Positions 5,714 to 57,293 are shown, numbered from the stretch's first letter. The stretch is DNA of 64,000 nt from Bacteroidia bacterium (GCA_049318585.1 JBMOGB010000001.1:62851-126850), one strand, 5' to 3'. Numbers and translations are program-made. Notes: generated by a model not told the origin, from the sequence alone.

Positions 5714-6193
5714 ATGAATTCAATTCAATCAAACATGCGGAATATTCTCAATAAGATTGCCGCACCAGAAAATAAAGTTATTGAGAATCCAGATCCAAAA
5801 TTAAACAGATATTATACAGCTCTAGATAAAGGAAGGCAATTAATCCTTGAATATAAAGCATTAAAACAAGCCCCTTATAATGATGCAAAAGCAAAAAATT
5901 TGCAGAATAGATTTAATCAAATTGCAACAATTTTTGATGAGTTTTCAAATAATTACCCATATGATTCAAACAATGTTGAAACTTCTCATTTGCTTAAATT
6001 AATGGAACCAACCAGAGATGATATCGATAATTATATAGCTGCTTTAAAATATGAAATGATTATATTCCAGCAAGGGAATAACCCACGAATCAAAATTTAT
6101 GATCAAGTAGACCCTTGGGCAAAAAATAGACCCGAAGAAGAAGGTTACGATTTTCAATATACCCCAGCTTCTAATAATCCTTGGGAAAGCTAA
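5714..6193 (+). CDS. hypothetical protein with N-terminal ..MRNILNKIAAP leader
   Basis: 159-aa ORF in the dominant strand/frame series. Its N-terminus (SIQSNMRNILNKIA) resembles that of the next gene (SIQSSMRNFIKQA). Confidence 0.6.
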   Translation: MNSIQSNMRNILNKIAAPENKVIENPDPKLNRYYTALDKGRQLILEYKALKQAPYNDAKAKNLQNRFNQIATIFDEFSNNYPYDSNNVETSHLLKLMEPTRDDIDNYIAALKYEMIIFQQGNNPRIKIYDQVDPWAKNRPEEEGYDFQYTPASNNPWES

Positions 6194-6224
6194 TTCCTAA
6201 TTACTAATAAATTATCATCATATT

Positions 6225-6740
6225 ATGATAATTTCAATTCAATCAAGCATGCGCAATTTTATAAAGCAAGCGCAAGAAAATAAAGCAACCGCAAAATATA
6301 ATCATGCAATTAAGCCAACGGTTCAAGATATGACATTGGCAGTTAATGAACTTAACGCGGCAAAATCAGAAATATTACCAGATCAATCAGCAGCCCTTGC
6401 TTGTTTAAATAAAATTATAAGTTATTTGAATTGGTTCAAAAATATTGGAAACACAAACACAAATGCGGCTGGTAAAAAAAGTCTAATTCCAAATGATGAA
6501 GAATTTAAAGCGCTTATTAGAACTGGATTATTTGGAACAAGTTTTATAGAATCATTAGCCGCCATATTAACTATTGGGGATAAAATACCTCAATTTAATA
6601 AAGAATTATCAAAAATTAATAAAAAAGCGGATGGAAACGAAAAAACATTTAGGACAGATGACAAAAGTGATTTTGAAGATTTGCGAGTTAGATTTCATCG
6701 GTATATAAAAGAAATAAATGCAGATTTTAAAAAAAACTAA
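6225..6740 (+). CDS. hypothetical protein, N-terminal paralogue of 5714..6193
   Basis: 171-aa ORF that ends in an A8 run (6729-6736) and overlaps the next ORF by 23 nt. Confidence 0.6.
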   Translation: MIISIQSSMRNFIKQAQENKATAKYNHAIKPTVQDMTLAVNELNAAKSEILPDQSAALACLNKIISYLNWFKNIGNTNTNAAGKKSLIPNDEEFKALIRTGLFGTSFIESLAAILTIGDKIPQFNKELSKINKKADGNEKTFRTDDKSDFEDLRVRFHRYIKEINADFKKN

Positions 6741-7206
6741 ATTAGAAGAACTAAAAGATTTAGATATTAAAGATTCTTATGAGGCTAGTCCCCTTTTAAT
6801 TCATTTTGATAGATATTTTATAAAATTTATAGAAATAAGCAAAAATTTACGATCAAAAACAAATATTAAAACAATAACTCTTATAGATCAAAATAAAGCG
6901 GATAAGTTATTTGCTGATAATTTTCAAATAAATTTACTTATAATTTTAGAAGAAGAAAGAAAACGAATGAAAAATGAAGGTTATTATAGTAGACCTTTAT
7001 TTGATCAAAGAAAATCTTTAGTTAGAAGACTTGTGGATTTAAACGTTTATGTTGATACTAAAACAAAATCAGCAACGAAAAAAGCAATAAACGCTTGCTT
7101 AAAACTGCAAGAAATAGCCAACCAATTACAAATTGATGTCGATGAGGCTATAGAAGAACATCATGCATCATTTACAAACCCATATAGACAAGCGAATAAA
7201 AGGTAA
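6718..7206 (+). CDS. hypothetical protein (source of the duplicated fragment at 8900..8990)
   Basis: 162-aa ORF. Nucleotides 7034-7085 (DLNVYVDTKTKSATKKA) recur almost identically at 8900-8951. Confidence 0.55.
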   Translation: MQILKKTKLEELKDLDIKDSYEASPLLIHFDRYFIKFIEISKNLRSKTNIKTITLIDQNKADKLFADNFQINLLIILEEERKRMKNEGYYSRPLFDQRKSLVRRLVDLNVYVDTKTKSATKKAINACLKLQEIANQLQIDVDEAIEEHHASFTNPYRQANKR

Positions 7207-7223: not shown

Positions 7224-7250
7224 ATGAATAATATGAATAATATGAATAAT
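7224..7250 (+). repeat. (ATGAATAAT)x3 tandem repeat containing the start codon
   Basis: atgaataat is repeated three times and followed by atgaaaaga. This gives four in-frame ATGs (MNNMNNMNNMKRAINKIA). Confidence 0.9.
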
Positions 7251-7649
7251 ATGAAAAGAGCAATAAATAAAATAGCCGATTATGACCCAACAGATAGTGG
7301 CTATAGTCCATCTAGTAGCCCAGTAGATGATTATTATAAACCAGAACCAAGTAGACGTAAGCCAGTTGAAAGCCCCTGGTCGTATGACCCAGTTACAGAT
7401 TCACCATATACTGGTCGTGGCAGTTCATTTCAAAATGAAGTAGATATTAGTTATAATCCATTTGATAGTGAATCCCCAAGAAAATCAAGAAAAACAACAG
7501 AATATCCAGACCCAATAGCTGATGATGATGAAGAATATGGAATTATAGCCAATGATGATGATGATAATGATGATGATGATTTAGATGCTGCTATTAAGCG
7601 AAAAGTTGACGATCTTGAAGGAGATGAAGAAAATGAATTTTACGGCTGA
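7224..7649 (+). CDS. acidic protein with KRAINKIADYD leader
   Basis: SD-like aaaagaggc lies upstream. Pro/Ser-rich middle. C-terminus DDDEEYGIIANDDDDNDDDDLD. Confidence 0.6.
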   Translation: MNNMNNMNNMKRAINKIADYDPTDSGYSPSSSPVDDYYKPEPSRRKPVESPWSYDPVTDSPYTGRGSSFQNEVDISYNPFDSESPRKSRKTTEYPDPIADDDEEYGIIANDDDDNDDDDLDAAIKRKVDDLEGDEENEFYG

Positions 7650-7676: not shown

Positions 7677-8015
7677 ATGAAAAGCTTAAACAAAGCAATA
7701 AGAAAAATTGCATCAATTAAAACAATGACCCCAATTTTGGCATTAGAAATATTGGATTTAAATAAAAAATATACATTGCCTGAATTAAAAGAATCATACA
7801 AAAGATTAATATTTAAGCATCATCCAGATAGAAATCAAGGAAATATAATGGCAGAAGAAAAAGCAACAAATATCAATATGGCTTTTGAATTATTAAAAAA
7901 AATGTTGGAAAAAAAATCAAAGCGTAAAAATGAAAGTGTCATTAAAGACATATATGATGAAGCAAGAATAACAAAAGATTATATAAAAGAAATGTGGGAT
8001 TATTTTCTTGCATGA
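7677..8015 (+). CDS. J-domain (DnaJ-like) protein, J-domain only
   Basis: LALEILDLNKKYTLPELKESYKRLIFKHHPDRNQGN..ATNINMAFELLKK is a full J-domain with an intact HPD motif. There is no G/F or zinc-finger region. N-terminal leader is LNKAIRKIASI. Confidence 0.8.
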   Translation: MKSLNKAIRKIASIKTMTPILALEILDLNKKYTLPELKESYKRLIFKHHPDRNQGNIMAEEKATNINMAFELLKKMLEKKSKRKNESVIKDIYDEARITKDYIKEMWDYFLA

Positions 8016-8050: not shown

Positions 8051-8634
8051 ATAAGTCTAAAAAACGCAATTAGGAAAATAGCAATTAGAAAAATAGCAGC
8101 ATCAAGGCTTACTACGAAATAGGCTTTGGAAATATTTGGGCTTGATCCCAATAGCACGGATGACCTAGATGAAAAAGATCTTAAAAAGATCTTAAAAAGA
8201 TTTATCATAAATTAATAGCGAAACATCATATTGATGTTATTAAAGGAAAAATTGAAGCAAACGGAAGAAAAATGGCGCAAGAAGAAGAACCAACCAAATA
8301 CTATCAAGATATAATCTTAGCTTATAAAGTATTAATTGGCGAGGAATAAGCAGCAGGACCGCACCAAAGAGCACCTGGAAGCGACTCAAATTTAAGAAGG
8401 TATCATGAAACAAAAGAGGAAGCGGTGAGGGAAGAACATAGACGTTATATGGAGGATTACGAAAGAAGACAAAAAGAAAAAGCACAAAGAGAACACCATG
8501 AAAGGCAATTAAAAGAAGTGGAAGAGGCAAGAAGAAAGCGCCAAGAACAAACTGGAATATATGAACCAGCCCCATCAACAAACCTGCAAGATCTTTTCCC
8601 CCATCTTTCTCAGCCTATAAATCGTAAACCTTAA
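8051..8634 (+). pseudogene. decayed paralogue of the J-domain gene
   Basis: ISLKNAIRKIA.. aligns with MKSLNKAIRKIA. Lesions: ATA replaces ATG (8051); in-frame TAG at 8120-8122; 11-bp tandem duplication gatcttaaaaa (8177-8187/8188-8198) shifts the frame; HPD is mutated to HID; TAA at 8347-8349 interrupts an otherwise open frame that runs to 8634. Confidence 0.7.
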
Positions 8635-8637
8635 TAA

Positions 8638-8737
8638 AGCCTTAAACGATTGGTTTAAAAACCAAAGACAATAATGTAATAAAACAACATATCAATCAAT
8701 ATGGTTTGTTAAAAGGAGAGTTATGTCCATTAAAAAA
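8638..8737 (+). repeat. direct repeat of 8950..9057 (upstream region, SD and first codons of the acidic-protein gene)
   Basis: ..taaacgattg(g/a)tttaaaaa(c/t)caaag...acaataatgtaataaaacaacatatcaat(c/t)aatatggtttgttaaaaggagagttatgt(c/t)cattaaaaaa. Copy B carries a 9-nt insertion. Confidence 0.85.
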
Positions 8738-8908
8738 GCAATTAAAGATGTAGGAAAAACTTGCAACGATGGCGAATGCGTTACAGAAGCCGGATCTTCA
8801 GAAGATCTAGAAGAATCTGCCCAAGATGATATAGATTACCAAACACCCGAATATTCCGATGATAAAGATTCTGATGATGAAGAAAGCGAAGACCTATTAT
8901 GGATTTAA
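8723..8908 (+). CDS. truncated deletion derivative of the 9043..9732 acidic protein
   Basis: Same SD (aaaaggagag) and start as 9043. Relative to that copy, 174 nt (9058-9231) are deleted in frame. The 3' end is cut at 8899/8900 by a fragment of a 6718-like gene. KAIKDVGKTCNDGECVTEAGSSEDLEES matches the full copy. Confidence 0.4.
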   Translation: MSIKKAIKDVGKTCNDGECVTEAGSSEDLEESAQDDIDYQTPEYSDDKDSDDEESEDLLWI

Positions 8909-15427: not shown

Positions 15428-18400
15428 ATGACATATCGACATATAGGATTTAGCGATAGCATTGTAATGAGAGAACTAGAAAAGATAGCTAGGGATAAGG
15501 GCTTAATTGAAGAAGAATTATACATTCCTCAATTAAAGAAAAAAGCTAGCAACAGGTTGGTAGAGACCGGCGATGTTTTTGTTGATGCGATAACACTTGC
15601 GGCGGAATTGCGGGAACGTGGTTTTAATAAGCAAGCAGCCGCATTGGAAAATAAAGCGATAATATATAAAAGCGCATATAATAATAATACGCCAGCATCA
15701 ACTATGGAAGAACGACAAGAAAGGGAGAGCGTTCTTTATAATACCAAATTTGGTCAAGGCATATTGAATAATGCGCACTTGCCATTGGAATTGCCAAAAC
15801 TTCCAAGCTCAATTAATGAGGGACATTTTGAAACAATTGAGGAAATTAATAAAATATTGGTTGAAAGCACAAAACATCAACCAATTGGAAAATTGGGGAA
15901 TGTTATTTCTTATCTTAATAAAATTGCAACAGTTGAGACAGGAATTGTTACAGCTAAAGATTTAAATAGTAAAATCAGCCAATATATTTCAAATATAACA
16001 GAACAAAATAACCAATTTGATAGAACTTCGATAGGACATACTCTAGATATATTAAAGTCTATTAAAGCAAGCGAAGGGAGTCTAAAACCGTTTATTGACC
16101 AGGCAAACAGAAATATAGTAGAATTTGGTCTGTTAAGTTTGAATAAAAGTGTTATTGATAATATTAACGAATCAGGACAGCCTGCTCTTGACAAAGTAAA
16201 AACCTTAGTCCCTACTGTTTTAACCATAGATGGTGCTAGTGACTATAATACAGCAATTAATAAGATAAAAGAATTTACAATCATAAAACCCGCAGATATT
16301 ACATATATAAGAACATGCTATTATCCCGCGGAAGACAAATTCTTAGAAATAATTAAAAAAAGCAATGAAGCAATAAATAATACAATTATAATTAAAATTA
16401 TTAATAATGGTGCGTTAATAACTGCCGAATTTAATAAATTTAAAACTAAAATTATAGATGCTGATGATAATTCTATTTCTGGAATAAGAAAAAATCAAAG
16501 AGCTATAGCGAATATTAAAAAAAGCACTTTTATAAAAAATGTAAACGCCGACGCCCTATCATTATTTCAAATAGGGGGACCTTTTAATTTGGAAGATTAT
16601 AATCCAAATTGTAGCCCAATAATAGAAAATTTTATAATTATATTAAACAAAATTAAAACAAATAGTGCAAATTTAAAACTAGTTGTGCTTCCCGCCCTTG
16701 ATACCTGTATAGATGAATTATCTGATATGGAGCAATCATCAGCGTTAGTCGATAAATTAACTATATTTGATAGTTTGAATACAGGTATAGGTGAATATAT
16801 AGATGAAAACTCAAAAGCTGATCGTTTTGATAGAGCAATTATAAAAGTAGCAGGAATATTTACTACCCCAGCTGGAGGCACAACCGCAGTAAAAACACCC
16901 GCAGCAGGTGGTAGTGGTGGTGGTAGTGGTGGTGGTGGTGGTGGTGGTGGTGGTGGTGGTGGTGGTGCGCAAACAAAACAAAGAACTGAGGAAGCAAAAG
17001 CCGGGGTAAGAAGAATGCAGGGATTATGTTCTGCTTTTGGCAAAGTTGTTGCAAAAGCACTACCCAGCGGTACAAGCCCAGAAAAAGCTAGAATACAAAA
17101 AGCTTATTCTAGGATTGATTTAACTTCAAGCACTGAGAATCCTGGAGCAGAAAGCGATGGCACCTGGGGACCCAATACTGAGATAGCATTAAAACAAATA
17201 AACGCATTATTAAATGACGATGCTTTTAGACAAGTTGGTGGGGCAGTATCAACAAACAAGCCAACATCGGCAGAAACTGATGACGCCTTGATAGAGCGGG
17301 CTTCTAAAAATTTCGCGGTAATGTCAAAAGCTCTCGCAATTCTAGATTCAGATATTGCTGCTATTTCTGGAATTGATAATTCATATATGATTATTGATAT
17401 ATTGCCAAGCACAATCACTGCGGAATTATTAGAAAGTAAAGAAGGTATACGTTTATCATTTAGTAATATTATTTCATTAAGAAATCTTAAAGCACATTTA
17501 GTAAAATCTGGCTTTATACCTGCAAGTGCAGATGATGACGTTAAAACCAGACAGCTTTCTAATGCAGGTCCTGATCTTACGCCTCTGCCTAAAGGAAGTC
17601 TGAATGATAAAACAACAGCCGGATCTAAAATTATTAATTTAATTAATAATATATTAAAAACATCAGGTTCAAATGACAACGTTAATGCTTGGACATTTGG
17701 ACAATTTGAAGAATTATTAGGCTGGTTATACAAAAGGGCTGAATTTCAAAAAACTGAAATTTCTGGTCTCTTAACAGCAGAAGAGAGTCCTGAAGCTAGA
17801 AAGAATAAAAAGCTTCTTGATATTAAAACCAATTATTCCGTAACTATTAAACTATTACAAGCTCATTTAAAACGATTAGCAACGGCAGCTAATATAGATC
17901 TTAAGACAGAGGCTTATAAAGGTATTGTTGTTCGAAATGATTGGTTAAATGGGATTCTAGGAGAAGAGCCTGCAAATATTGCCCCTGGTGGTGGTCGTGG
18001 TAGTCGTCGTGGTCGTGGTGGTGGTGGTGGTGGTGGTTATAGTGGAGGATATGGAAACCAAGAATTACCTCAAGCGGTGCTAACATTCAAAATGACACCT
18101 TTCCCAGATAACAGAACATTATATGTCCATGCATTATTGCAAGCTTTTGAAATAACCGACCAAGTTCTTGACGCGGGACCAAGAACTATACTTTATAGTT
18201 CTTTAGACACGTTAGAAACTGCAATGAGCGTTCTTCCAGCAGAAACTCCACAATCATATTATCATCATTTATTAAAAATATTTAAAAAAATACAAGCTGG
18301 ATATAGAACCTTTGCTGAAGACGTACAAATACCAGATAGGGTTAGAGACCAACAAGACCAAAGGTGCATAGAAATACAACATAAAGTCATGGCACTTAAA

Positions 18401-19922: not shown

Positions 19923-21200
19923 ATGGTTAAATATTACAATCAAAATAATGGAAGTGAAGTATATTCTGAGTTTTTAAAACTTGCCAATGAAAAAGAGTCA
20001 TTATATGGAGTAACAACCGGTGATGATGAAACTGGGCAAGATCTTATAGAGCAAGCCCATCCAGAAGATGCAAAAACAATAGATTCATATATAGATAGAG
20101 GAGGTATTGTAGAAAATCAATGGCAGCAACAAGAAGCGGATATTTTTGTGGCAAGAAGAATGCCTAATGGAACCATATCAAGAAAAAAAAACGCAACAAA
20201 TGATTTGACAAATGAATTAAATATGATCATTTCTGAAATGGAAATCCGCAGGCAAAATGATCTTGTTAAATTTGCAAAAAGAATAAAGAAAAAAGCAGTA
20301 GGTCCATTAGCAGTAGGTCCATTAGCAGTAGGTCCATTAGCAATAGCTGGAATAGCAGCCGCTGTAATAATCCCAGTAGTTGGAGCTTGGTGGTATATGT
20401 CCCATAGAACCGATCCAAAAAATACAGGTATAGACAAGGCTATTAATGAATTATTAAAAAATATAGCAATATATAAACAAGTTTTATTGGAGAAATTAAC
20501 TGGAGAACAACGCGGCAATATTATTCAAAATATAGATCAATTTATTGTTTTTATTTCAGGCTTAAGCGAATCAAGAAATACTTATATGCAAAGTTCAAGT
20601 TCATTGGCTAATATGTTACAAGCAGAAACTAATATATCTCCAGATAAAGAACCAACAGCTGAAGATATTAATAACAATCTAAAAAAAGATAATGATGATA
20701 AACCAATATTAGATGCTAATCAAAATCAGCAATTAAATGATAAAGCTAAACATATTATTGATTATATCAATAGATTTAATGAAATGTATAAAAAATATAT
20801 TACAACATCAATAAATCCAAGATTGCAAAAAGAATTAAACGATTATTATATGCCTTATTTTGAACAGACTAAAGATATTGAAGGTATTAATCAAGATTGG
20901 ACTGATAAAGTTTCAGACATTGTTAATCCTACATTAAAATCTACTGGAGAAAATTTTATACAAAATTTACAATCGCTTATAAAATCTTTAGACAGTGACT
21001 TAGCAGTTAGAGAAATTGACAGAAAAAAAGCAATAGATAATGTAACATCAAAAGTACAATCTAATATATCATCTCAATTTACAATTGATCCAGCATTATT
21101 AGCTGAAAATGAGCAACCAACACCAAATACAAAACCAAATACAGCACCAAATGCAGCACCAAATGCAGCAGCAACTCCAAACACAGCACCAATAAAGTAA
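19923..21200 (+). CDS. single-pass membrane or virion protein
   Basis: ATG 19923 follows aaaaggaaaaa (the ORF track starts at TTG 19902). 3x AVGPL is followed by a TM-like AIAGIAAAVIIPVVGAWWYM. C-terminal PNT/APNA repeats. Confidence 0.6.
   Translation: MVKYYNQNNGSEVYSEFLKLANEKESLYGVTTGDDETGQDLIEQAHPEDAKTIDSYIDRGGIVENQWQQQEADIFVARRMPNGTISRKKNATNDLTNELNMIISEMEIRRQNDLVKFAKRIKKKAVGPLAVGPLAVGPLAIAGIAAAVIIPVVGAWWYMSHRTDPKNTGIDKAINELLKNIAIYKQVLLEKLTGEQRGNIIQNIDQFIVFISGLSESRNTYMQSSSSLANMLQAETNISPDKEPTAEDINNNLKKDNDDKPILDANQNQQLNDKAKHIIDYINRFNEMYKKYITTSINPRLQKELNDYYMPYFEQTKDIEGINQDWTDKVSDIVNPTLKSTGENFIQNLQSLIKSLDSDLAVREIDRKKAIDNVTSKVQSNISSQFTIDPALLAENEQPTPNTKPNTAPNAAPNAAATPNTAPIK
20295..20339 (+). 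repeat. 15-nt tandem repeat x3 (gcagtaggtccatta; AVGPL)
   Basis: Three perfect copies directly before the predicted TM helix. Confidence 0.9.
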
Positions 21201-23689: not shown

Positions 23690-24703
23690 ATGAATATTTT
23701 TAATACACAAGGACAATTAAATGCATCTTCAGTAAAAGATGCATTTCAAACAATTATGAAATTCGCCTCAATTCTTGAGGATAACGTCCCATCAAATGCC
23801 TCGCTAGCTGGTAGACCAGACTTAAGCGATACCGGCAGAGATGACCTAATCACCAGAGCCATCATGACAATGGACGGTAAAATTGCTTTAGCCCAGGCTA
23901 TGGCAAATCCAATCCGCAGAAATTTAGACTATCAGGGAATTGCCCGTAGAACACTAGTGTTAGATCCTCTACCACAAGGCGCTCTACCAGTTTATGACCG
24001 CGATATCGACGTTGCTGCAGTTATCGTATCAAGTAACGGTACAGCACCAGAGAGCCGCGTATTTGCAGAGAGAATTACGGTTCCAGAATTTGAAATTATT
24101 TGCAATCCAACAGTTCGTATTCACGAAGTTCGCAGACGACGATTCAATGTAATTGACCGTGCCGTTCAAAAGGCTCGTCAAGAAATCATGGCTCAAGAAG
24201 ATGCAAACATCTTTGCAGCCCTAGACACAGCTTCTCAAGTAGAGAACACTCTTACCGACATCGCTGATGGTGGTTTAACAAAGAGAGACCTATCAGAAAT
24301 CAAAGTTTCAATTGATCGTTGGGACCTAGTAACTACCAAGTTCTTCCTAAACATTAATGAGTTCAATGACATTCTAAATTGGGGCTCAGGCGGTGGACAA
24401 GGACCTCAAGGTGGCGAAGTAGATCCAGTAACTCAACGCGAGATTCTACAAACTGGTCTATATGCACATCTTTGGGGAGCAGACATTCATGTAAGCAAGA
24501 TCGTTCCTCCAGGCACAGTATATGGTTGTGCAGATCCAGAGTTCGTAGGCGTTATGCCAGTACGTCAGGACATCGAAGTCCTTCCTGCTGATGAACCTCG
24601 CCAATTAAAATTGGGCTGGGTAGTAAATGAAATAATCGGTATCGGCATTGTAAATCCAAGAGCAGTGGCCGCTGGACGCAAATCAGTACAAATAAACCCC
24701 TAA
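23690..24703 (+). CDS. major capsid protein, HK97 fold
   Basis: AGGAG (23681-23685) lies 4 nt before ATG 23690 (the ORF track starts at TTG 23639). RRNLDYQGIARRTLVLDPLPQGALPVYDRD.., ITVPEFEI.., RRRRFNVIDRAVQKARQEIMAQEDANIFAAL.., GADIHVSKIVPPGTVYGCADPEFVGVMPVRQD.. follow the typical HK97/encapsulin-type capsid pattern. GC-rich, with terminators on both sides. Confidence 0.85.
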   Translation: MNIFNTQGQLNASSVKDAFQTIMKFASILEDNVPSNASLAGRPDLSDTGRDDLITRAIMTMDGKIALAQAMANPIRRNLDYQGIARRTLVLDPLPQGALPVYDRDIDVAAVIVSSNGTAPESRVFAERITVPEFEIICNPTVRIHEVRRRRFNVIDRAVQKARQEIMAQEDANIFAALDTASQVENTLTDIADGGLTKRDLSEIKVSIDRWDLVTTKFFLNINEFNDILNWGSGGGQGPQGGEVDPVTQREILQTGLYAHLWGADIHVSKIVPPGTVYGCADPEFVGVMPVRQDIEVLPADEPRQLKLGWVVNEIIGIGIVNPRAVAAGRKSVQINP

Positions 24704-29416: not shown

Positions 29417-29417
29417 T

Positions 29418-30059: not shown

Positions 30060-30072
30060 GATAAAAGGTAAC

Positions 30073-36020: not shown

Positions 36021-38324
36021 ATGCATAAAATATATAAACTAGCAGCTCTATACGAAAATATATGTTTTAATTTGTTTAAAATAGCTGGATTAAAAGAAGT
36101 TAAAGAAAAATACCCAAATATATCTAAAGAAATTGAGAAATTAAATAATCAAGTAAAACCTAAATATTTAGATTGGGGAGCTACACAACTAAATGATGGA
36201 TTTGTTCTTCAAGATATAATCGAAGCTTTAAAAACATTTGATAGATTATCACGAAATTTAGAGACTGCAGATAGAGATATTAATAAGTATGATTCTTTAG
36301 AAACTCTAAATACTAAATTAGAAACTTTACAGAGCAGGCAAAGAAGAACAGTAGATACTAAAGGATTAGACGCTGAAGTCTTATATGAAGATGCTAGATA
36401 TACCATGGTTAGACCAAACACTAAAATGGCAAGTATCAAATTAGGTTCTGGTACTAAATGGTGTATAACTGAACAAAAAAGAGAACATTTTAATCGATAT
36501 CAATCAGATAATGTAGTATTTTATATCTTAATTGATAAAACATTGAAAAGTTCTAATACAAATTATAAAATTGCTTTTTCAGTTGAAAGAGATTTAGAAT
36601 GTAATATAATTAAAATTACAGGGTGGGACGCTACTAATAAAGATAGAAAACCAGAAGAATATCCAGGATATTCTCTTGTAGAAGATATTATAAAAAAAGA
36701 TGCAGAAGCATTGCCCCCAAATATGATTGTTTATTTTAATGAAGAGATGTTAAGCGAGGAAGAAGCTAATTATTTCATATCATTGCAAGATGCTGAATTT
36801 TTAGAAAAATTTAAAATCCCGCCAAAATATATGCGCCTTGCAAATCCGGTTGAAGATATTGAGATAGAGACAAAAGAACAAAAATATCAATATCTTAGAA
36901 ACCCAAATATAAGCATAACAAAAAAAAATCATATGATAGATAAAGAAAGGGACCCTAATACTTTATTATATTTAAGCACAAAAAATGATTTACATCTTGA
37001 AATAATTAAATCTATAATTACAAACATTAATACTCCAACTAATGCTTTAGTCCTTCTTTATAAAAAATATAAAGATAAAGATACATTTATACAAAATCCT
37101 AATTGCCCATCTAATATTTTATATAATTTTTTAATCGAAGCATATAAAACAAATAAAATAGGACTAAAGTATTTTACTCCTATAAGTTTCCAAAGAAATA
37201 TAACTCCTCAAATAATAGATTTTATTATAAAAAATTGCAACTTTATTGATTACGAGGATTTCTATGTTAATATTATAAATAATAGTTATGTGCCTATAAA
37301 AGAAAAAATAAAAGTTTTAAATAGTAATAACATAGACAAGTGTAGGATAGTAAATAGTTTAAATTATAGACGTATATCTTCTGATTTATTATATATTATA
37401 TTAAATATAATAAAAGAACAAGCAATACCAATGAGCTCATTTGCACTAATAGACATGAAAAACTGTAAAGATTTAGATTTAAAATGTTTTAAAATTTTAT
37501 TAGAATTAAAGCCAGATATAACTCCTTATGTACTTAAGCTATATACTCTATCTTATGAAATTTTAAATTTTCTTGCTGAAAGTAAAGATGAAGATATATT
37601 ATGCCAAATATTAGTTAATCAAAATTTAGACGATAATTTATATTTAAAAATAAAAGATAAAATTAACGTATCTAATAAAATAAATTCAGCAAAAAGTAAT
37701 CATAAAATATTGACATTAATTATAAAGCATGAAGATAATGATACTATAGCTAAAGCAGTTGATCTTCTGATAGATAATGACCAAGATAGAGAGATATTTG
37801 AAATTTTATCAAATCATAATTCTGCAAAAGTAAGACTTGTTTTAAGCAAAAATCATAATACTCCAAAATTAATTCTTAAAAAATTAATAAAAGATAAAGA
37901 CCAACAAGTTAGAGAATCAGCTACTAAAACTTATGAATTTTTAACTAGAAAAGACACAGGAGAAAAGGAACCAGAAAATCATCATGTTAATACAGAACAG
38001 GAACCAGAAGAAGAGTCTTCACACGATAAATTATTAAAAAGAAAACCAATTTTTGAAACAATGGGATATTCTGATGGATACATTTCTTTACATGGGACCG
38101 AAGAACAAATAATGGAATTATTAGACAAAAATCCTCCACAGAAAATATTAGAAAATATGGCTTATAACACAAAAATTCCTTATAATGTTCAATTTGAATT
38201 AGCCTTATTAAACAATGATAAAGTTAATAAAATATTATATGACAATCCTACAGTTGATGAAGATATAAAACGAGATCTCCATGCTTATTTTCATGAAGAA
38301 TATGAGGAAGAATTAGATGAATAA
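36021..38324 (+). CDS. leader-tagged TKWCITEQ-domain + HEAT/LRV-like repeat protein, copy 2
   Basis: Tandem paralogue of 33679..35994. The ends are identical or near-identical, and the central ~1.3 kb is diverged with indels. Confidence 0.65.
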   Translation: MHKIYKLAALYENICFNLFKIAGLKEVKEKYPNISKEIEKLNNQVKPKYLDWGATQLNDGFVLQDIIEALKTFDRLSRNLETADRDINKYDSLETLNTKLETLQSRQRRTVDTKGLDAEVLYEDARYTMVRPNTKMASIKLGSGTKWCITEQKREHFNRYQSDNVVFYILIDKTLKSSNTNYKIAFSVERDLECNIIKITGWDATNKDRKPEEYPGYSLVEDIIKKDAEALPPNMIVYFNEEMLSEEEANYFISLQDAEFLEKFKIPPKYMRLANPVEDIEIETKEQKYQYLRNPNISITKKNHMIDKERDPNTLLYLSTKNDLHLEIIKSIITNINTPTNALVLLYKKYKDKDTFIQNPNCPSNILYNFLIEAYKTNKIGLKYFTPISFQRNITPQIIDFIIKNCNFIDYEDFYVNIINNSYVPIKEKIKVLNSNNIDKCRIVNSLNYRRISSDLLYIILNIIKEQAIPMSSFALIDMKNCKDLDLKCFKILLELKPDITPYVLKLYTLSYEILNFLAESKDEDILCQILVNQNLDDNLYLKIKDKINVSNKINSAKSNHKILTLIIKHEDNDTIAKAVDLLIDNDQDREIFEILSNHNSAKVRLVLSKNHNTPKLILKKLIKDKDQQVRESATKTYEFLTRKDTGEKEPENHHVNTEQEPEEESSHDKLLKRKPIFETMGYSDGYISLHGTEEQIMELLDKNPPQKILENMAYNTKIPYNVQFELALLNNDKVNKILYDNPTVDEDIKRDLHAYFHEEYEEELDE

Positions 38325-45129: not shown

Positions 45130-45735
45130 CTAATATATCAAAATGTTTTGTGCTAAATACAATATGTAATCCACTATCAATTTTTTTTCTTTTACTCTAT
45201 TCATCCATTCTTTATGACCAGACAGTTCTTCGAATTTAAGAATATTATTAATATCACCATCAAATAATGATTTATAATTTCCTACTAATATTTTATATTT
45301 TGAAATAGTATTATTATAAAATCTACTAAATTTTGGTTTGCCATGCCCAATTTGTATTTCATTATTTCTTAATACTTTCATAAAATAATTTTGGTTATCA
45401 ACTTTAAATTTAAATTCTTTAACTAAAGATAATAATTTATCTAATTCTTGTGCTGTTTTATCATTTTTATCAACCCTTATTATTTCATGTCTTAAATAAA
45501 CAGGGCTAAGTTGATTATAAATCATATCAAATTGATATTTAATTTCATGCATAAATTCTTTTTCATTAGTTGTTGGACTATCTAGTCTATCTTCAACTGG
45601 AACTTTAAAATCAACAAGCCTTGGATCTTTTTGGATAAAGTCTATTCCATCAAGCTTTCTTTTATGTTTTTCTGGAATCCAATCTGGATAATCAATCGCA
45701 AATTTATAAAAGAAATTTATTGCTTTTTTTAACAT
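45130..45735 (-). CDS. N-terminal part (leader + helical domain) of the split gene
   Basis: MLKKAINFFYKFAIDYPDWIPEKHKRKLD.. is colinear with residues 1-200 of the 45746..47431 product. It leaves register exactly at the A8 run and stops 17 codons later (TAG). Confidence 0.7.
   Translation of the reverse strand: MLKKAINFFYKFAIDYPDWIPEKHKRKLDGIDFIQKDPRLVDFKVPVEDRLDSPTTNEKEFMHEIKYQFDMIYNQLSPVYLRHEIIRVDKNDKTAQELDKLLSLVKEFKFKVDNQNYFMKVLRNNEIQIGHGKPKFSRFYNNTISKYKILVGNYKSLFDGDINNILKFEELSGHKEWMNRVKEKKLIVDYILYLAQNILIY
45181..45188 (-). promoter_or_regulatory. A AAA AAA slippery heptamer: candidate -1 frameshift or transcriptional slippage site
   Basis: Coding strand reads GTA AAA GAA AAA AAA TTG. A -1 slip on A_AAA_AAA continues ATT GAT AGT GGA.. 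= KKIDSGLHIVFSTKHFDILGMSSRSEW, matching the paralogue's KKIDDGLQFVFTTKHFDILGMSSRSEW. Confidence 0.6.
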
Positions 45736-45745: not shown

Positions 45746-47431
45746 TTATATAGCTGTAGTTTGATATAGTTCTGGGTTACAGGCATAACAAATATTATTA
45801 CTACTTTTCCATTTTTCTATATCTGGTTCTTCTATTTTATATAATAAGCCGCATTCATTACATTGATCAATTGAGTCCTCAGTTTCTGTACATTCATCAC
45901 AAACATATTTAAAAATAATATTATTATCGCGCAATAAATGTACTTTATTAGCATCTTCTTCGTCAAGATATTTGTTGCATAAACATTCTTCATAATCATC
46001 TATACAGCCTTTGCATACTTGTTTTATAGTATCTCCGCTCTTATCAATTACAGGACAAACATCCTTCTTCAAAAAAGGTTCTTCGCAATCTTTGCACACA
46101 AAACAATCATTTTCAAAACAATTTGGACAATAATTTTCACAATCAACTGTCATTTCATCTTTTATAAATTTATCACACTTATCACATTTAGAATATCCTT
46201 TGCGTTTTGCGCAATCTATACAATAATAATATTCATCGTACTCATAATCGCGAACTAGTACTATTTCATCATTTTCCCGTGCTCCGTTACAATTTTCGCA
46301 ATAACTATATGATGCAGCAAAGCAACTCTCACAATATAAATCATTAGCATATTCCACTATATTTTGATCATTTAATGCGCCATTACAAATGCAACAGTTT
46401 TCGCCTCCTTTTACTGATAAATCAGCATCATCATATGCTTTATGTTCATAATCCTCATAATATTTTATTAAATCTGCCCCGTTTATTACAATCTCCATAC
46501 CCAATTTTTCTTTTAATATATTTTTAAAACCTTCTTTAACTACAGCAGAATAATCTGGGTAAACTCTTTGAACGAATAAAACGTCTTCATCTGTATCCAT
46601 ATCTTTTACAATCCAGACGGAGCTTCTATAAATCATTTTTTCGCCGCGTCCTTCATAATCTGATCCATCTGTAATATATATAATTCCTATATTTTTAGAG
46701 ACACAAGAGCCAAGCGTTCCTAAATTAAAATCTGATGTTAGCCAAGTTGACCCTGGACGCAAATCTTGGCAGCTTTTCCATTCGCTTCTTGATGACATTC
46801 CTAATATATCGAAATGTTTAGTTGTAAATACGAATTGTAAACCATCATCAATTTTCTTTTCATTTATTCTATTCATCCAGTCTTTATAGCCAGGTATATC
46901 TTCAAACATTTTTGGGGCTAAAACGTGACGAAATATGTCCTTATATTTTTCTATATTTTTATATCTTTCTAAAATTTTGATATATTTTGAAATAGTTTTA
47001 TTATAAAATTTAGAAAAAGTTAAATCGGCAGTACCAATTTTAATGTTATTATCTCTTAATACTTTTATAAAATAACTTTCAATACACACTTTATCAGAAA
47101 AATCTATTGCTAATGACGTTAATTTTTTTAATTCTTCAACTGTTTTGTCGTTTTTATCAATTTCTTTTATAATATCTGTATATTCACTTGAATTAAGAGT
47201 TTTAATTAAACTAAAATTATATCTAATTGCTGGCATTAATTCTTTTTCATTAGATGTTGGAATATTTAGTCTATGTTCAACTGGAACTTTAAAATCAACA
47301 AGCCTTGGATCTTTTTGGATAGAGTCTATTTTATCAAGCTTTCTTTTATGTTTTTCTGGAATCCAATCTGGATAATCAATCGCAAATTTGTAAAAGAAAT
47401 TTGCTGCTTTAAATATATTCATTATGTTCAT
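45746..47431 (-). CDS. leader-tagged protein: helical N-domain + W-x-SC domain + CxxC zinc-ribbon array (unsplit paralogue)
   Basis: 561 aa. IFKAANFFYKFAIDYPDWIPEKHK leader. SRSEWKSCQDLRPGS..GSCVSKNIGIIYITDG. C-terminus has >10 CxxC pairs with LIM-like spacing. Confidence 0.7.
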   Translation of the reverse strand: MNIMNIFKAANFFYKFAIDYPDWIPEKHKRKLDKIDSIQKDPRLVDFKVPVEHRLNIPTSNEKELMPAIRYNFSLIKTLNSSEYTDIIKEIDKNDKTVEELKKLTSLAIDFSDKVCIESYFIKVLRDNNIKIGTADLTFSKFYNKTISKYIKILERYKNIEKYKDIFRHVLAPKMFEDIPGYKDWMNRINEKKIDDGLQFVFTTKHFDILGMSSRSEWKSCQDLRPGSTWLTSDFNLGTLGSCVSKNIGIIYITDGSDYEGRGEKMIYRSSVWIVKDMDTDEDVLFVQRVYPDYSAVVKEGFKNILKEKLGMEIVINGADLIKYYEDYEHKAYDDADLSVKGGENCCICNGALNDQNIVEYANDLYCESCFAASYSYCENCNGARENDEIVLVRDYEYDEYYYCIDCAKRKGYSKCDKCDKFIKDEMTVDCENYCPNCFENDCFVCKDCEEPFLKKDVCPVIDKSGDTIKQVCKGCIDDYEECLCNKYLDEEDANKVHLLRDNNIIFKYVCDECTETEDSIDQCNECGLLYKIEEPDIEKWKSSNNICYACNPELYQTTAI

Positions 47432-51353: not shown

Positions 51354-53718
51354 GAAAATAAGCGTGGAGGTCTCGTTTTATATCTTCATCAACTGTAGGA
51401 TTATCGTATAATATTTTATTAACTTTATTATTGTTTAATAAGGCTAATTCAAATTGAACATTATAAGGAATTTTTGTGTTATAAGCCATATTTTCTAATA
51501 TTTCCTGCGGAAGATTTTTGTCTAATAATTCCATCATTTGCTCTTCGGTTCCATGCAAAGAAATATATTCATCAGAAAGTTCTGATGTTGGAAAACTTTG
51601 TTTTCTTTGTTTTAATTTTACATCTTCTAAAGTCTCTACTTCTCGTTCTCTTTTTTGCTCTCGTTCTTGTTCTTGTTCTTGTTCTTGCGGAGGTTGCCAT
51701 TGTGTGGACTGCCAAAATGCCGCCTGATCTGGTGGTATCTGTGTTGTATTAACGTTTTGGTGTCCAGAAATATAATCATCTGGTTCTTTTTCGGATAAAA
51801 ATTTATAAGTTTCAGCAGCGGCTTCTCTAACTTGTTGATCTTTATCTTCCATTAGTTGTTTAGCAATTAATTCTGGGATAAAATCATTTTTACTTAAAGC
51901 AAGCCTTACTTCTACAGCTTTATGGTTTATTAAAATTTCATATACTTTTTTATACTCAATTTCATCTCGTATTTCTTTAGCTATTCCAGCTATAACAGAG
52001 TCATTTTCATACTTTAAAAATAATGAAAATAAATCAAGATAGTCACTTACATATGGAGTTACTGCTTTTATTTTTTTTACGTCACTAATTTTATCCTTTA
52101 TTTTTAAATATAAGTCTTCATCTAATCTTTCATTAGTTAATATCTTATATAATAGATTTTCATCTTTACTTTCTGATAAATAATTTAAAAATTTATATGA
52201 TTGAATTGTAGAAGCAATTTTTATTACATTCAAATCTGGGCATAATTCTAATATAACTTTAATACATTTTTCATCTATATTATTACAATTTAGCATTTCA
52301 TATATATTAGAACTATGTAATCTGCCAATATCTTTTTTTATTTCAATTAATATAGCGTATAATAAATCAGAAGGCATAGGACTATACCTTAGTTTATCTA
52401 TGAAGTCCGAAACATTACTATTATTAACAATTTTTATTTTTTCTTCTAAAGGTATAAAATTATTATTTATAACATTTACGCAACACGCTGAATAATTCAA
52501 CATTTTTTTATTTCGAAGGCTTATTAAGAAATCTATCATTTTAGTATTTACGTGCTTATTTCTAAATATATCATGGATATATTTAGGGTCACTTTTAACT
52601 AAAAAACCAAATAAAATATGAGCTGGACAATTATTGTTATACATAAACTCCTCTATATCTTTATATTTTTTATAAAGAAAGTCTAAAGCATTAGTTGGAG
52701 TATTATTGTTTGTAATTATAGACATAATTACTTCATGAGGCAAATCATTTTTTGTGCTTAAATATAATAAAGTATTAGGGTCCGTTTCTTTATATACCAT
52801 ATGATTTTTTTTTGTTATGCTTATATTTAGGCTTCTAAGATATTGATATTTTTGTTCTTTTGTCTCTGCTTCAATATTTGCAGCTGGATTTATAAGTTTT
52901 TTATATCTATTTGGAATTCTTATAGTTTTCAAATGTTCTTTAGGCTGCACTAACAAAAAATAATTAGCTTCTTCATCGCTTAACATTTCTTTATTAAAAT
53001 AAACAATCATATTTGGAGGCATTATTTCTGCGTCTTTTTTTATAATATCTTTTATAAGAGAATACCCAGGGCAATCTTCTGGGTTTTTCTTTTTATCAGG
53101 AGCATCCCATCCTAAAATTCTAGTTACCTTACAGTCTAAATCTCTTTCAACTGAAAAAGCAATTTTATAATTTGGGTCTGAACTTCTCAACGTCTTATCA
53201 ATTAAGAAATATAATACTACATTATTTGTTTGATAATATTCATAATGAGTCGCTGCTTGTTCAGTTATACACCATTTGGTTCCAGAACCAAATTTAATAC
53301 TTGCCATTTTAGTATCTGGTCTAACCATGGTATATCTTTCATCTTCATATAAGACCTTCGCATCTAAATCTTTAGTATCTACTACTCTTCTTTGTTTAAG
53401 CTGTAAAGTTTCTAATTTAGCATTTAGAGTTTCTAAAGAATCATAATTATTAATATCTCTATCTATAATCTCTAAATTTTTGGATAATCTATCAAATGTT
53501 TTTAAAGCTTCGATTATATCTTGAAGGACAAATCCATCATTTATTTGTTTAGCTCCCCAATCCAAATATTTAGGTTTTACTTGCTTATTTAATTCATCAA
53601 TTTCTTTAGATATGTTTGGGTATTTTTCTTTAGTTTCTCTTAATCCAGCTATTTTAAACAAATTAAAGCATATATTTTCGTATAGAACTGCTAGTTTTGT
53701 AATGGTTAATGAATGCAT
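51334..53718 (-). CDS. leader-tagged TKWCITEQ-domain + HEAT/LRV-like repeat protein, copy 3 (inverted)
   Basis: Start is probably ATG 53718 (MHSLTITKLAVLYENICFNLFKIAGLRE; the track extends to 53838). GSGTKWCITEQ. C-terminal YISLHGTEEQMMELLDKN..MAYNTKIPYNVQFELALLNN..DEDIKRDLHAYFHEEYE is nearly identical to copies 1 and 2. Confidence 0.65.
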   Translation of the reverse strand: MHSLTITKLAVLYENICFNLFKIAGLRETKEKYPNISKEIDELNKQVKPKYLDWGAKQINDGFVLQDIIEALKTFDRLSKNLEIIDRDINNYDSLETLNAKLETLQLKQRRVVDTKDLDAKVLYEDERYTMVRPDTKMASIKFGSGTKWCITEQAATHYEYYQTNNVVLYFLIDKTLRSSDPNYKIAFSVERDLDCKVTRILGWDAPDKKKNPEDCPGYSLIKDIIKKDAEIMPPNMIVYFNKEMLSDEEANYFLLVQPKEHLKTIRIPNRYKKLINPAANIEAETKEQKYQYLRSLNISITKKNHMVYKETDPNTLLYLSTKNDLPHEVIMSIITNNNTPTNALDFLYKKYKDIEEFMYNNNCPAHILFGFLVKSDPKYIHDIFRNKHVNTKMIDFLISLRNKKMLNYSACCVNVINNNFIPLEEKIKIVNNSNVSDFIDKLRYSPMPSDLLYAILIEIKKDIGRLHSSNIYEMLNCNNIDEKCIKVILELCPDLNVIKIASTIQSYKFLNYLSESKDENLLYKILTNERLDEDLYLKIKDKISDVKKIKAVTPYVSDYLDLFSLFLKYENDSVIAGIAKEIRDEIEYKKVYEILINHKAVEVRLALSKNDFIPELIAKQLMEDKDQQVREAAAETYKFLSEKEPDDYISGHQNVNTTQIPPDQAAFWQSTQWQPPQEQEQEQEREQKREREVETLEDVKLKQRKQSFPTSELSDEYISLHGTEEQMMELLDKNLPQEILENMAYNTKIPYNVQFELALLNNNKVNKILYDNPTVDEDIKRDLHAYFHEEYEK

Positions 53719-55356: not shown

Positions 55357-56505
55357 CTTTTTAGCTTTAGCACAACTTGGGCACCAAGTATGCCTGTGCA
55401 TTATAGTCCCTGGTTTAGCTTCCCATTTTGTATTGCAAACATTACATTTCCATAATAATTTTATATGCCTGCTATAATAAACATCAGATAAACATTCTCC
55501 ATTTTTATTTTTTGCTAAAATATTCATTTCTTCGATTGTACCTTTTTTTGATCCATTACAATTTGGGCACCAACTTTTTCTTGATATTACAGAATTAATA
55601 CTAGCTTCCCATATTTGTTTGCAAGTATTACATTTCCATTTATATTTTTCATGAGATCCTACATAATATTCAGATAAGAATTCTCCATTGTTATTAATTG
55701 CATAATTTTTTAATTCATCTATCTTATCATTATTTTTACTATATGCAAATGAAAGATCTATATTTATAGAATCATAATTTTCTGGGATATTATAATTAAC
55801 TTTTGATAGTTCATTTTTTATTAATTTTTTTAGTTGTGATATTTTTGTAATTGATATTAGCTCAGGGATTACAACTAAAGTAACATTATGTTGTTTGCAT
55901 AATTCAATTTTTTTCAAATCATCTAACTTTCTTTGTTCCAAATCAATTTGATATTTCCAATTGTTTGAATAATGTTGTTCTCCATTATGTTCAAATGCTA
56001 GTTTCAATTCTTCGCAATAACCATCCAATTCCATTATATTATTTTTATCATTTCTTAACCAAGATGGTTTTATCTTTGGAAATTTGTTATTAAATAATTG
56101 TTCAAAATATATTTTGCATATTCTTTCATATAATCCAGAAGAGCATTGTGGACAAGTTGAATTTTTATATACTAATCTGTTTAATGTGCTTTTCCAAATA
56201 TTATTGCATATATTACATTGCCAAAATAGATTATCTAAACAATTTGTATAATCAGAAATTAATTTGATATTCCTTTCATTTGAAAAATTATCAATAAATT
56301 CTTTGGAATATTTTTTAGATTGTATTTTGCAATTTGGGCACCAAGTCCCTTTAATAATATTTGAAAAGCAAGTTTTCCATATGAAATTGCAAATATTACA
56401 TTTCCAGACTAATTGTTGTTTATTATCTATATAATTATCTATTAAGCATTCTCCATTTTTATTTTTTGCGGTTTCTTTAATAAAATCGAGGCTGTATTTT
56501 TTCAT
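55327..56505 (-). CDS. Zn-ribbon / Vsr-DUF559-like endonuclease family, order 2 ZnR - nuclease - 2 ZnR
   Basis: KNGECLIDNYIDNKQQLVWKCNICNFIW..TWCPNCK.., IMELDGYCEELKLAFEHNGEQHY, ..KWKCNTCKQIW..SWCPNCN... Convergently overlaps the previous gene by 30 nt. Confidence 0.8.
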   Translation of the reverse strand: MKKYSLDFIKETAKNKNGECLIDNYIDNKQQLVWKCNICNFIWKTCFSNIIKGTWCPNCKIQSKKYSKEFIDNFSNERNIKLISDYTNCLDNLFWQCNICNNIWKSTLNRLVYKNSTCPQCSSGLYERICKIYFEQLFNNKFPKIKPSWLRNDKNNIMELDGYCEELKLAFEHNGEQHYSNNWKYQIDLEQRKLDDLKKIELCKQHNVTLVVIPELISITKISQLKKLIKNELSKVNYNIPENYDSINIDLSFAYSKNNDKIDELKNYAINNNGEFLSEYYVGSHEKYKWKCNTCKQIWEASINSVISRKSWCPNCNGSKKGTIEEMNILAKNKNGECLSDVYYSRHIKLLWKCNVCNTKWEAKPGTIMHRHTWCPSCAKAKKLKSNFVTMP

Positions 56506-56507
56506 TA

Positions 56508-57293
56508 TTACATAGTTCCATCACTTTGCCTAGCATTCATCCTTTCATCATTTGCGCCAGCTCTTTCTTTTTCTTGCTGAATTATTTTAGCTCTATTTTG
56601 TGGGTCTAATGAAGATAACATTTGAGCAAAATAAGTTTTAATAGTATCATAACTACTAGTAGCCAACCCATAACCTGTAAGTGCGCCTAAACTATCATAA
56701 ATAATTTTACCAGGTGTATCTTTCTCACTTATTTGCGAATATATATCATCTATTGTTTTTAAAAATGAAGATATGTTGCCTTTAAGGCTATTTATTTTAT
56801 TATCATTAAAATTAGTTGGAGTTAAACATTGATTAATTGTTGTTCTAAGTCCATAATATTCACTTCTGACTTTTGCTGTTATATCCAATAATTTTAAGTT
56901 TGCAGCCACTCCAATTAATACATTAATATGTTGATCTATAGTTAAAATTGCAGCCGTTACATGTTCTACTATTATTGGAAGGAATTCTATTATGCTAGAC
57001 ATTAAAGAATTGTTGGGTACTGCTGGCATCTCTAAATTAACTTCAAGTGGATTTTTAGATAATTGCTGCCATTTTGGTTGTGGCTGTTCTGCATCATTTG
57101 GGGCAACAGTTTGTTGCTTTCGTGGTTGTGGTTGTTTTGCATCATTTGGGGCAACAGTTTGTTGATTTTGTGGTTGATTAAACCATGTTTGTTGCTTTGT
57201 TTGCTTTGTTTGCTTAGAAGGACTGTTGGCTGTTGCCTTAGCTATTTTATAAAAAGCATCAACTAATTTAAATAAATTATATCTTTGATTCAT
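56508..57293 (-). CDS. leader-tagged Gln/Pro-rich protein
   Basis: MNQRYNLFKLVDAFYKIAKA leader. A 48-nt tandem duplication (57076-57116 / 57124-57164) encodes QQTVAPNDA(K/E)QPQP. The start lies 13 nt downstream of the (AAT)13 tract. Confidence 0.6.
   Translation of the reverse strand: MNQRYNLFKLVDAFYKIAKATANSPSKQTKQTKQQTWFNQPQNQQTVAPNDAKQPQPRKQQTVAPNDAEQPQPKWQQLSKNPLEVNLEMPAVPNNSLMSSIIEFLPIIVEHVTAAILTIDQHINVLIGVAANLKLLDITAKVRSEYYGLRTTINQCLTPTNFNDNKINSLKGNISSFLKTIDDIYSQISEKDTPGKIIYDSLGALTGYGLATSSYDTIKTYFAQMLSSLDPQNRAKIIQQEKERAGANDERMNARQSDGTM

Follow-up and report, generated by a model that had tools for sequence, protein, structure and literature searches.

Our analysis revealed evidence for a shared N-terminal leader peptide on head proteins and accessory enzymes encoded on a stretch of phage DNA that was deposited under the name Bacteroidia bacterium (GCA_049318585.1, JBMOGB010000001.1:62851-126850). 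The whole stretch of 64,000 nucleotides is referred to as the window, and positions are counted from its first letter. The general core of the leader is phi-x-K-phi-A, where phi stands for a hydrophobic residue. We consider it most probable (roughly 58%) that the leader represents a signal of the capsid-targeting or propeptide type that would act as a docking helix in the core of the procapsid, analogous to the capsid-targeting sequence (CTS) of phage T4 but with another motif and in another phage lineage. The docking itself, its partner, the cleavage and the injection are inferred. An initial annotation had proposed such a signal on 14 otherwise unrelated proteins, an observation that we could confirm in part and an interpretation that is partly supported. 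Every one of the 14 N-termini translates as given there, with starts that are ambiguous by a few codons at 7224/7251, 28487/28511, 30719/30734, 33670/33679 and 53838/53718. The lack of relatedness was overstated: paralogues make up 8 of the 14 examples, and about nine independent families are left after collapsing them. Specifically, the two GNAT proteins starting at 29418 and 30073 share 89% identity over their full length, the proteins starting at 33679, 36021 and 53718 share 59-80% identity, likewise over their full length, those starting at 45735 and 47431 (45130-45735 and 45746-47431) share 58% identity over 190 amino acids, and the J-domain gene at 7677 has a decayed paralogue at 8051. 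The pattern originally given, KAI-x(1-4)-K-[ILF]-A, fits only four or five of the 14, whereas the shared core phi-x-K-phi-A holds generally. In addition, we found carriers that had been missed, namely the capsid protein (23690), the proteins starting at 15428, 19923, 2969 and 4566, a variant in 6225, and the N-terminus of the prohead protease.

The core is strongly enriched at N-termini when compared to shuffled and internal controls, a comparison that had been suggested along with the original proposal. Within the first 30 amino acids of the 62 proteins in the window there are 21 matches to phi-x-K-phi-A, as compared to 12 in the other 18,466 residues, which corresponds to a 17-fold enrichment (Fisher p=1.7e-14). 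Motif-bearing N-termini were found on 18 of the 62 proteins, while 1.5 +/- 1.2 were expected (max 7; 2000 shuffles, first 40 residues), and none of 47 shadow open reading frames (ORFs) carried the motif N-terminally. Seven of the 12 internal matches fall in head-module proteins. For a test at the family level the window was pooled with 80 related loci and the proteins were collapsed to 192 clusters, 19 of which contained the motif in amino acids 1-30, versus one or two per internal bin of 30 amino acids (p=3e-8). In the window alone, about 14 independent families contain it inside the first 35 amino acids. The near-miss patterns phi-x-E-x-A, phi-x-K-x-L, phi-x-K-x-G and phi-x-R-x-A showed no N-terminal enrichment. 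The motif expression was picked after viewing the data; since the enrichment was replicated in other genomes and the near-miss controls stayed flat, neither chance nor composition is a likely cause.

The codons of the invariant Ala vary (GCA, GCC, GCT and GCG), which indicates selection on the peptide and not on the DNA. A cause at the level of DNA or mRNA, such as a regulatory site or codon bias, was rejected on account of these codons, the varying distance from the start and the near-miss controls. It is likewise very improbable that the leader has no function at all and merely reflects paralogy, recent duplications and AT-rich codon bias at gene starts. The paralogous examples, one leader segment that was copied by tandem duplication, and a genome of about 30% G+C (the window itself is AT-rich with ~24-38% G+C) would fit such an origin. 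However, the enrichment survives family collapsing, N-terminal shuffling and the near-miss controls, the invariant Ala uses all four of its G+C-rich codons, and the motif is kept in orthologues of only 27-36% identity.

With K as position 0, the leader is hydrophobic at -6, -5, -2 and +1 and has Ala at +2. Acidic residues are common at -7, -4 and +4 among 64 non-redundant leaders, which diverge beyond +3, often into linkers rich in Pro, Gly and Ser. The residue directly following the Ala varies in the cargo leaders (A, D, S, I, T, G or K), the Lys is located anywhere between amino acids 6 and 32, and several proteins contain two copies of the motif. The helical hydrophobic moment of the leaders is 0.52, compared with 0.28 +/- 0.14 for internal 12-mers.

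The best conserved carriers of the leader are proteins of head assembly. The window opens inside the prohead protease gene (3..2912, plus strand; frame 3 is open and cut at the left window edge), as had been annotated: window:3-650 matches phrog_18299 (E=4.5e-15) and aligns to gp19 of phage G. The first ~100 residues of this product match families described as head maturation protease (phrog_18299, phrog_3244 and phrog_4523), and the rest of the ORF encodes a long scaffold-like tail of coiled-coil with stretches rich in Pro, Ala and Gly. No Pfam protease match was obtained for either the window protease or phage G gp19. On L086, a Logan contig that extends the window leftwards, the complete protease-scaffold protein comprises 1083 amino acids, and its N-terminus, just left of the window, contains a double motif, HDRFVKIAANWKKIAPKAEDFLY. 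This double motif is kept in five IMG/VR relatives and takes the form GLVKTAAKVVKIAPKEDDFLY in phage G gp19. The part of the protein within the window contains further internal copies, e.g. FVKYAKG and RMRKMAQ. Shortly upstream of the protease-scaffold gene lies a leaderless protein-tyrosine-phosphatase-like gene (L086:3501-4862, Pfam Y_phosphatase2), and a counterpart with a similar N-terminus is found at the corresponding place in L089-L092.

ORF 23690-24703 encodes the major capsid protein (phrog_2522, E=1e-76), and its residues 45-327 share 52% identity with gp27 of Bacillus phage G. The leader KDAFQTIMKFA (23735..23767, plus strand) lies in a 45 amino acid N-terminal extension that gp27 of phage G does not have. 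The motif in this leader (LKDALQTLVKYAAVLEEN) is kept in 77 of 78 relatives. In IMG/VR we identified 363 relatives of the capsid protein with ~80% identity, some of them on contigs of up to 480 kb. Together with the phage-G-like capsid protein itself, they indicate that the source of the window is a phage-G-like jumbo phage from a clade that is widespread and uncultured. No near-identical DNA was found in the phage collection.

Four further head-module proteins of the window, all on the plus strand, carry the leader. In protein 2969-3727 it reads NGHRAMFKKIA (3038..3070), and both the family and the position of the motif are kept beside the protease in relatives. Protein 4566-5660 has VLMVNSLVKIA (4602..4634), and this leader-like segment recurs inside 2969, a partial paralogue. 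The neighboring ORFs 2969-3727 and 3669-4415 (plus strand) resemble a split or decayed second copy of 4566-5660, with segments that are 53-59% identical. The 1130 amino acid protein 15428-18820 carries SIVMRELEKIA (15458..15490); its N-terminal family MRSLEKVAKEKGLVK is found in relatives as well, most members keep the motif, and a second K-x-A-[SA] copy often follows ~14 amino acids downstream. Where the window phage has this single ORF, relatives have two or three separate genes with leaders (e.g. 445, 383 and 547 amino acids in L021); either it is a fusion in the window phage or it was split in the relatives. In protein 19923-21200 the leader is SEVYSEFLKLA (19953..19985), with a motif that 56 of 58 relatives retain (SEIFxSFVKIAQEKG). 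The latter protein and 18827-19870 (plus strand), another head-module protein, contain hydrophobic segments rich in Gly and Ala, e.g. AVGPLAVGPLAVGPLAIAGIAAAVIIPVVGAWWY, which are a feature of membrane-inserting ejection proteins. Further head-module proteins of the relatives bear the motif too. Sequence searches of Pfam and PDB with 15428, 18827, 19923, 2969, 4566 and the protease together with phage G gp19 gave nothing or low-complexity matches.

The motif is missing from the decoration protein, the tail-like proteins, GMP reductase, the epimerase, CspA and the aminotransferase, and likewise from methylases, homing endonucleases and a Zn-ribbon repeat family. It thus occurs on proteins that enter the procapsid and is missing from external and metabolic proteins. 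This distribution bears on the possibility that the leader serves docking or localisation unrelated to the capsid, i.e. to a chaperone (the J-domain protein with Hsp70), as a membrane-binding helix, or as an N-terminal tag for degradation or regulation, which we regard as quite unlikely. Short amphipathic N-terminal helices have many uses and ClpX reads N-terminal motifs; phage G encodes both ClpX and ClpP, a J-domain protein is encoded in the window, and the motif is low in information. However, such a role would not account for the fact that conservation is best on the capsid protein, the protease and the head-module proteins, nor for the lack of the motif on metabolic, homing and external proteins, and the J-domain protein is itself tagged.

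Besides the head proteins, the leader was found on a set of accessory proteins. Four of them are encoded side by side on the plus strand: an HD-domain protein (28511-29416; leader NGLLNMFCKYA, 28520..28552), two GNAT proteins (29418-30059; IKAIHIFYKLA, 29427..29459; and its tandem duplicate 30073-30732; IKAIDIFYKLA, 30082..30114) and a nucleotidyltransferase of the CCA/poly(A) type (leader MFIIKAIDIFYRLTKIA, 30734..30784), whose conserved domain begins at about amino acid 48 of ORF 30719. The initial annotation had counted RNA-acting enzymes among the cargo; this is solid for the nucleotidyltransferase only, as the HD and GNAT domains are generic. The genes at 30734 and 30073 have their first 13 codons and ~80 nucleotides of upstream DNA in common, which is explained by a tandem duplication of the GNAT gene (29340-30816, plus strand) with its junction within the leader-coding segment. 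Short leader homology may promote duplication and shuffling of tagged genes.

The nearest homologues of the nucleotidyltransferase share 43-63% identity, many of them are located on contigs of 200-440 kb, and they keep the leader as KKAINIFTKLIKIADAE or LLKIANIFYSLTKKADADAE. A large subclade has a minimal leader of ~9 amino acids, MTLL[RK]LADA, and the proteins of a sister subclade as well as cellular CCA enzymes start exactly where this minimal leader ends; remoter homologues are also without leader.

A protein of 771 amino acids (33679-35994) carries a double leader, MFKIYKLADLYENICFNLFKIA (33679..33744, plus strand), and has paralogues of similar length at 36021-38324 (double leader 36021..36086, plus strand) and 51334-53718 (double leader 53647..53718, minus strand). 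A homologue of this family with 37% identity (P0004) keeps the leader; a remoter 538 amino acid family that has one domain in common with it does not. On the minus strand the leader further occurs on 45130-45735 (KKAINFFYKFA, 45697..45729), on 45746-47431 (FKAANFFYKFA, 47381..47413) and on 56508-57293 (FKLVDAFYKIA, 57240..57272), the last with a low-complexity stretch rich in Gln and Pro after the leader. Protein 45746-47431 (minus strand) consists of a 45130-like domain and a Zn-finger domain like that of 44336. It combines both domains, so that the pair 45130-45735 and 44336-45127 (minus strand) is a split copy or 45746 is a fusion.

The J-domain protein 7677-8015 carries KSLNKAIRKIA (7680..7712, plus strand), and its DnaJ domain begins at amino acid 24. 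Its decayed paralogue has a duplicated leader, AIRKIAIRKIAA (8051..8120, plus strand), no ATG, an in-frame stop and a frameshift. Three further leader proteins are encoded nearby on the plus strand. The small protein 5714-6193, whose gene lies in a variable region flanked by the scaffold and the 10922 family, has SNMRNILNKIA (5729..5761). The N-terminus of 6225-6740 is paralogous to it and shows a variant leader, QSSMRNFIKQA (6240..6272), where K-Q-A replaces K-I-A. The product of 7224/7251-7649 has the leader MKRAINKIA (7245..7277), is very acidic (pI 4.1) and rich in Pro, Ser and Asp, and resembles in its N-terminus phage G starts of the type MKRLIKKASVYD.

Several accessory leaders are also found in a relative of the window phage. 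JAEMOL010000002.1 (L097; 202,668 bp), which was found via the neighborhood of its nucleotidyltransferase and whose capsid protein is 72% identical, has the same gene set near the capsid gene. Its HD orthologue (36% identity) has NFFHKMAMD where the window has NMFCKYAALD, its GNAT orthologue (~30% identity) has LFVKFADDD where the window has IFYKLAIDE, and its orthologue of the 45746 family (27% identity) has VFYKQAVDMPEWVP where the window has FFYKFAIDYPDWIP. The motif is also kept in its nucleotidyltransferase (59% identity), and eleven families are leaderless in both phages. A peptide-pattern search of IMG/VR found no close relatives of the HD protein or of 45130. The enzyme domains of tagged proteins begin at amino acids 24-93. 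Judging from these homologues, the leader appears to be a functional and modular part of the accessory enzymes.

In the reading that we favor, the amphipathic N-terminal helix would mark proteins for the interior of the procapsid by docking onto a shared partner within the core as this assembles. The most plausible candidate would be the scaffold portion of the protease-scaffold protein; otherwise the tagged helices might bundle with the N-terminal helices of the capsid protein itself. Proteins docked in this way would be caught within the shell, where a subset may subsequently be trimmed by the prohead protease, and the cargo may exit with the DNA at infection. The accessory set that would have acquired the signal is conserved in the lineage and comprises the HD phosphohydrolase, the GNATs, the J-domain protein, the CCA/poly(A)-type nucleotidyltransferase and several proteins whose function is not known. 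The carriers are proteins that must co-assemble in the procapsid plus a stable, selective set of enzymes, while external virion proteins and ordinary metabolic genes are without the motif. The T4 CTS is the closest functional analogue. The initial proposal of a capsid-targeting signal is supported by its context, i.e. by the capsid protein, the protease-scaffold and the carriers in the head module, by the proteins that are without the motif and by the conserved leaders of the orthologues, while the T4-like cleavage context that it included is not supported.

Several observations weigh against a targeting signal. The motif is low in information and single matches are not diagnostic. A position-specific scoring matrix built from the leaders of other genomes ranked the orthologous head proteins on top, and the enzyme leaders reached only 7-9 bits with it, which is among internal false positives. 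With a matrix from capsid-protein leaders alone, which was over-fitted, all scores were negative and the cargo leaders were not retrieved. Over the first 200 kb of phage G the strict motif shows no enrichment (1.4-fold), and the capsid regions of two remoter capsid relatives, Yoloswag and Rctr197k, show no clear motif by eye. A protease that is fused to its own scaffold has no obvious need for a separate tag. There is also no consistent cleavage context after the motif. Finally, an AlphaFold2 model of the nucleotidyltransferase, built on an alignment of 40 sequences, shows residues 2-38 as one helix (predicted local distance difference test, pLDDT, ~85-95), with the leader running on into the first helix of the enzyme and not forming a detachable peptide on a linker, so that removal of this leader is not obvious given the continuous helix predicted by the model.

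From these comparisons, the strict motif is clade-specific. A mimicry of the whole capsid-protein leader by the cargo was considered and is not supported, as the capsid-only matrix fails to recover the cargo leaders; as far as the sequences can tell, the cargo leaders share with the head-protein leaders only the core and its periodicity.

With regard to cleavage, the initial annotation had pointed to a Glu in an (I/L/T)-x-E context behind several leaders. Within 15 amino acids after the motif, [LIT]-x-E occurs in 27% of the 64 non-redundant leaders and in 18% of control segments (6 of 15 leaders in the window), and we rejected it as a general feature of the leader. [SAG]-x-E follows the motif in 31% of the leaders versus 14% of controls, with 20% for the window's own leaders. 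As the main alternative to our reading, the motif might be merely a recognition or cleavage site of the prohead protease (e.g. K-x-A plus a small residue) without a role in targeting, in which case the tagged enzymes would enter the capsid otherwise or would be processed outside of it. An invariant small residue (Ala) together with Lys is what would be expected from protease subsite specificity, and the herpesvirus assemblins, which fold like HK97-type prohead proteases, cleave behind the Ala of V/L-x-A|S sites. Several copies are present in the scaffold-like tail and in internal head proteins, and tandem copies are frequent at N-termini, an arrangement that resembles the redundant cleavage sites in phiKZ propeptides (PMC9026906). 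In addition, the looser pattern phi-x-K-x-A-[SA] is N-terminally enriched 9-fold in the related loci and 5-fold in phage G (p=1e-3). Nevertheless, we regard a pure protease site as unlikely: the spacing of its hydrophobic residues (-6, -5, -2, +1) and the prediction of a helix are more in line with a docking helix than with an extended substrate, the residue after the Ala is unconstrained in the cargo leaders, and a cut right after the motif of the nucleotidyltransferase would fall inside the confidently modelled helix.

N-terminal capsid-addressing peptides are already known from T4 and P1, and head propeptides from phiKZ-like phages. The CTS of the T4 internal proteins IPI-III and Alt was reportedly described by Mullaney and Black in 1996. 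This CTS is all that is conserved among the T4 internal proteins, which are otherwise diverse, and it brings them into the scaffolding core (PMC3012670, PMC9026906), and the T4 protease itself is suspected of having a CTS-like propeptide (PMC9026906). As in T4, a short peptide at the N-terminus is all that otherwise unrelated proteins have in common, the phage encodes a prohead protease, and cargo genes lie in variable loci. In contrast to the T4 peptide, which ends in (L/I)-x-E, the motif is phi-x-K-phi-A with no consistent Glu cleavage site after it, the major capsid protein is itself tagged, the predicted cargo includes housekeeping-type enzymes, and the phage belongs to a phage-G-like lineage with a phrog_18299-type protease fused to the scaffold. 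The leader is therefore not a member of the T4 CTS family, given that its motif differs, the Glu context is not found and the protease is of the phage G type and fused to the scaffold.

In P1, a reporter enters the capsid when it carries the N-terminal 30 amino acids of DarB (PMC9024508). DarB, a large enzyme, resembles the proteins studied here in having an N-terminal stretch of <=30 amino acids as its signal, with cargo that is meant for the next host (PMC9024508); targeting is predicted in our case. The P1 signal is on one protein without a family-wide consensus, whereas here one consensus is found on many families. Head propeptides of phiKZ, 201phi2-1 and SPN3US are cleaved at S/A/G-x-E (PMC5694885, PMC9026906). 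These are jumbo phages too, and they process many of their head and ejection proteins, with redundant sites in the propeptides, but their propeptides are mostly >100 amino acids long and have only a three-residue cleavage motif in common, while here a helix of 11-22 amino acids is shared within the first ~35. Among systems outside this group, the capsid and scaffolding proteins of staphylococcal phage 80alpha share an N-terminal extension that is removed by the host protease Prp, which also trims the ribosomal protein L27. The likeness is that capsid and assembly proteins bear the same short N-terminal motif ending in a small residue; the 80alpha motif is …LQFFA, however, its protease is a cysteine protease of the host, and to our knowledge no enzyme cargo uses the LQFFA motif. 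Encapsulin cargo-loading peptides, which are mostly located at the C-terminus, attach directly to the shell protein, with no scaffold or protease involved. They also address unrelated enzymes to the interior of an HK97-fold shell, as is predicted here, but the encapsulin shell protein is untagged whereas the capsid protein of the window phage is tagged. We found no description of a phi-x-K-phi-A leader motif in the literature searched. Distinctive is that one consensus spans capsid protein, protease, internal proteins and enzymes, in a clade that is abundant in metagenomes.

It is conceivable, although we put this forward only tentatively and consider it doubtful, that the leader is a capsid address that can be read from genomes across widespread uncultured phage-G-like megaphages (363 capsid genes in IMG/VR), so that the injected proteome, a kit for takeover of RNA metabolism and proteostasis, could be predicted from sequence. 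If so, the kit delivered with the DNA would comprise the CCA/poly(A)-type nucleotidyltransferase, the HD hydrolase, the GNATs and the J-domain co-chaperone. Leader homology would in that case be a driver of duplication and shuffling among cargo genes, with the junction of the GNAT and nucleotidyltransferase genes as an example. If the leader is a capsid address, a simple sequence rule would predict the packed and injected proteins of a large group of uncultured giant phages, which is otherwise achieved only via virion proteomics of cultured phages. RNA/tRNA-acting enzymes and a co-chaperone would then be candidates for early injected effectors. The T4 principle of capsid targeting would be extended to an unrelated jumbo-phage lineage, with one signal serving capsid protein, protease and cargo, and a tag of ~9 amino acids (MTLL[RK]LADA) might be used for loading foreign proteins into very large capsids.

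Phage G (NC_023719) shows a recurrent start of its own, MKRLIKK[AS], on ~13 of the 253 proteins in its first 200 kb; the paper on the phage G tail does not include them among its proteins. Three paralogous phage G proteins with an HGTS/HTTS motif start with MKRL… or RLLKLKKLAS, namely gp53 (L001:31884-33017), gp251 (L085:28671-29204, minus strand) and gp233 (L085:13172-13849, minus strand). Weak, sub-threshold matches to PARP or the diphtheria toxin C domain were found for gp53 (E=2.5e-4) and gp251 (E=0.027), and the three are possibly leader-tagged ADP-ribosyltransferases, reminiscent of T4 Alt.

The contig (171,750 bp; locus tags ACOYMA_00540 and ACOYMA_00545) was deposited as a Bacteroidia bacterium metagenome-assembled genome and yet represents a phage-G-like jumbo phage; this label is due to mis-binning or else is a hint about the host. 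Around the capsid gene, within and just after the head module, we found homing-endonuclease-type genes (GIY-YIG, LAGLIDADG and HNH-associated repeats) and a DNA methylase (21763-22572, minus strand; 24824-25636, 25669-26607 and 27371-28480, plus strand). Zn-ribbon-like repeat units (e.g. W.C..GH.W) build seven or eight paralogous proteins, none of which carries the leader. They are encoded at 9750-10913 and 41618-42790 on the plus strand and at 11605-12396, 12393-13544, 42794-44131, 48113-49249 and 55327-56505 on the minus strand, with a weak member at 57381-58757 (minus strand). Those that were scanned had no match in Pfam, and a homologue in L097 showed a faint match to DUF4379. Beside the scaffold gene, 7224-7649, 8723-8908 and 9043-9732 (plus strand) encode extremely acidic (pI ~4.1), low-complexity proteins with poly-Asp/Glu tracts, 8723 being 80% identical to amino acids 61-116 of 9043. 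The closest relative, L089, is without equivalents of these acidic proteins in that region, which marks it as a variable island.

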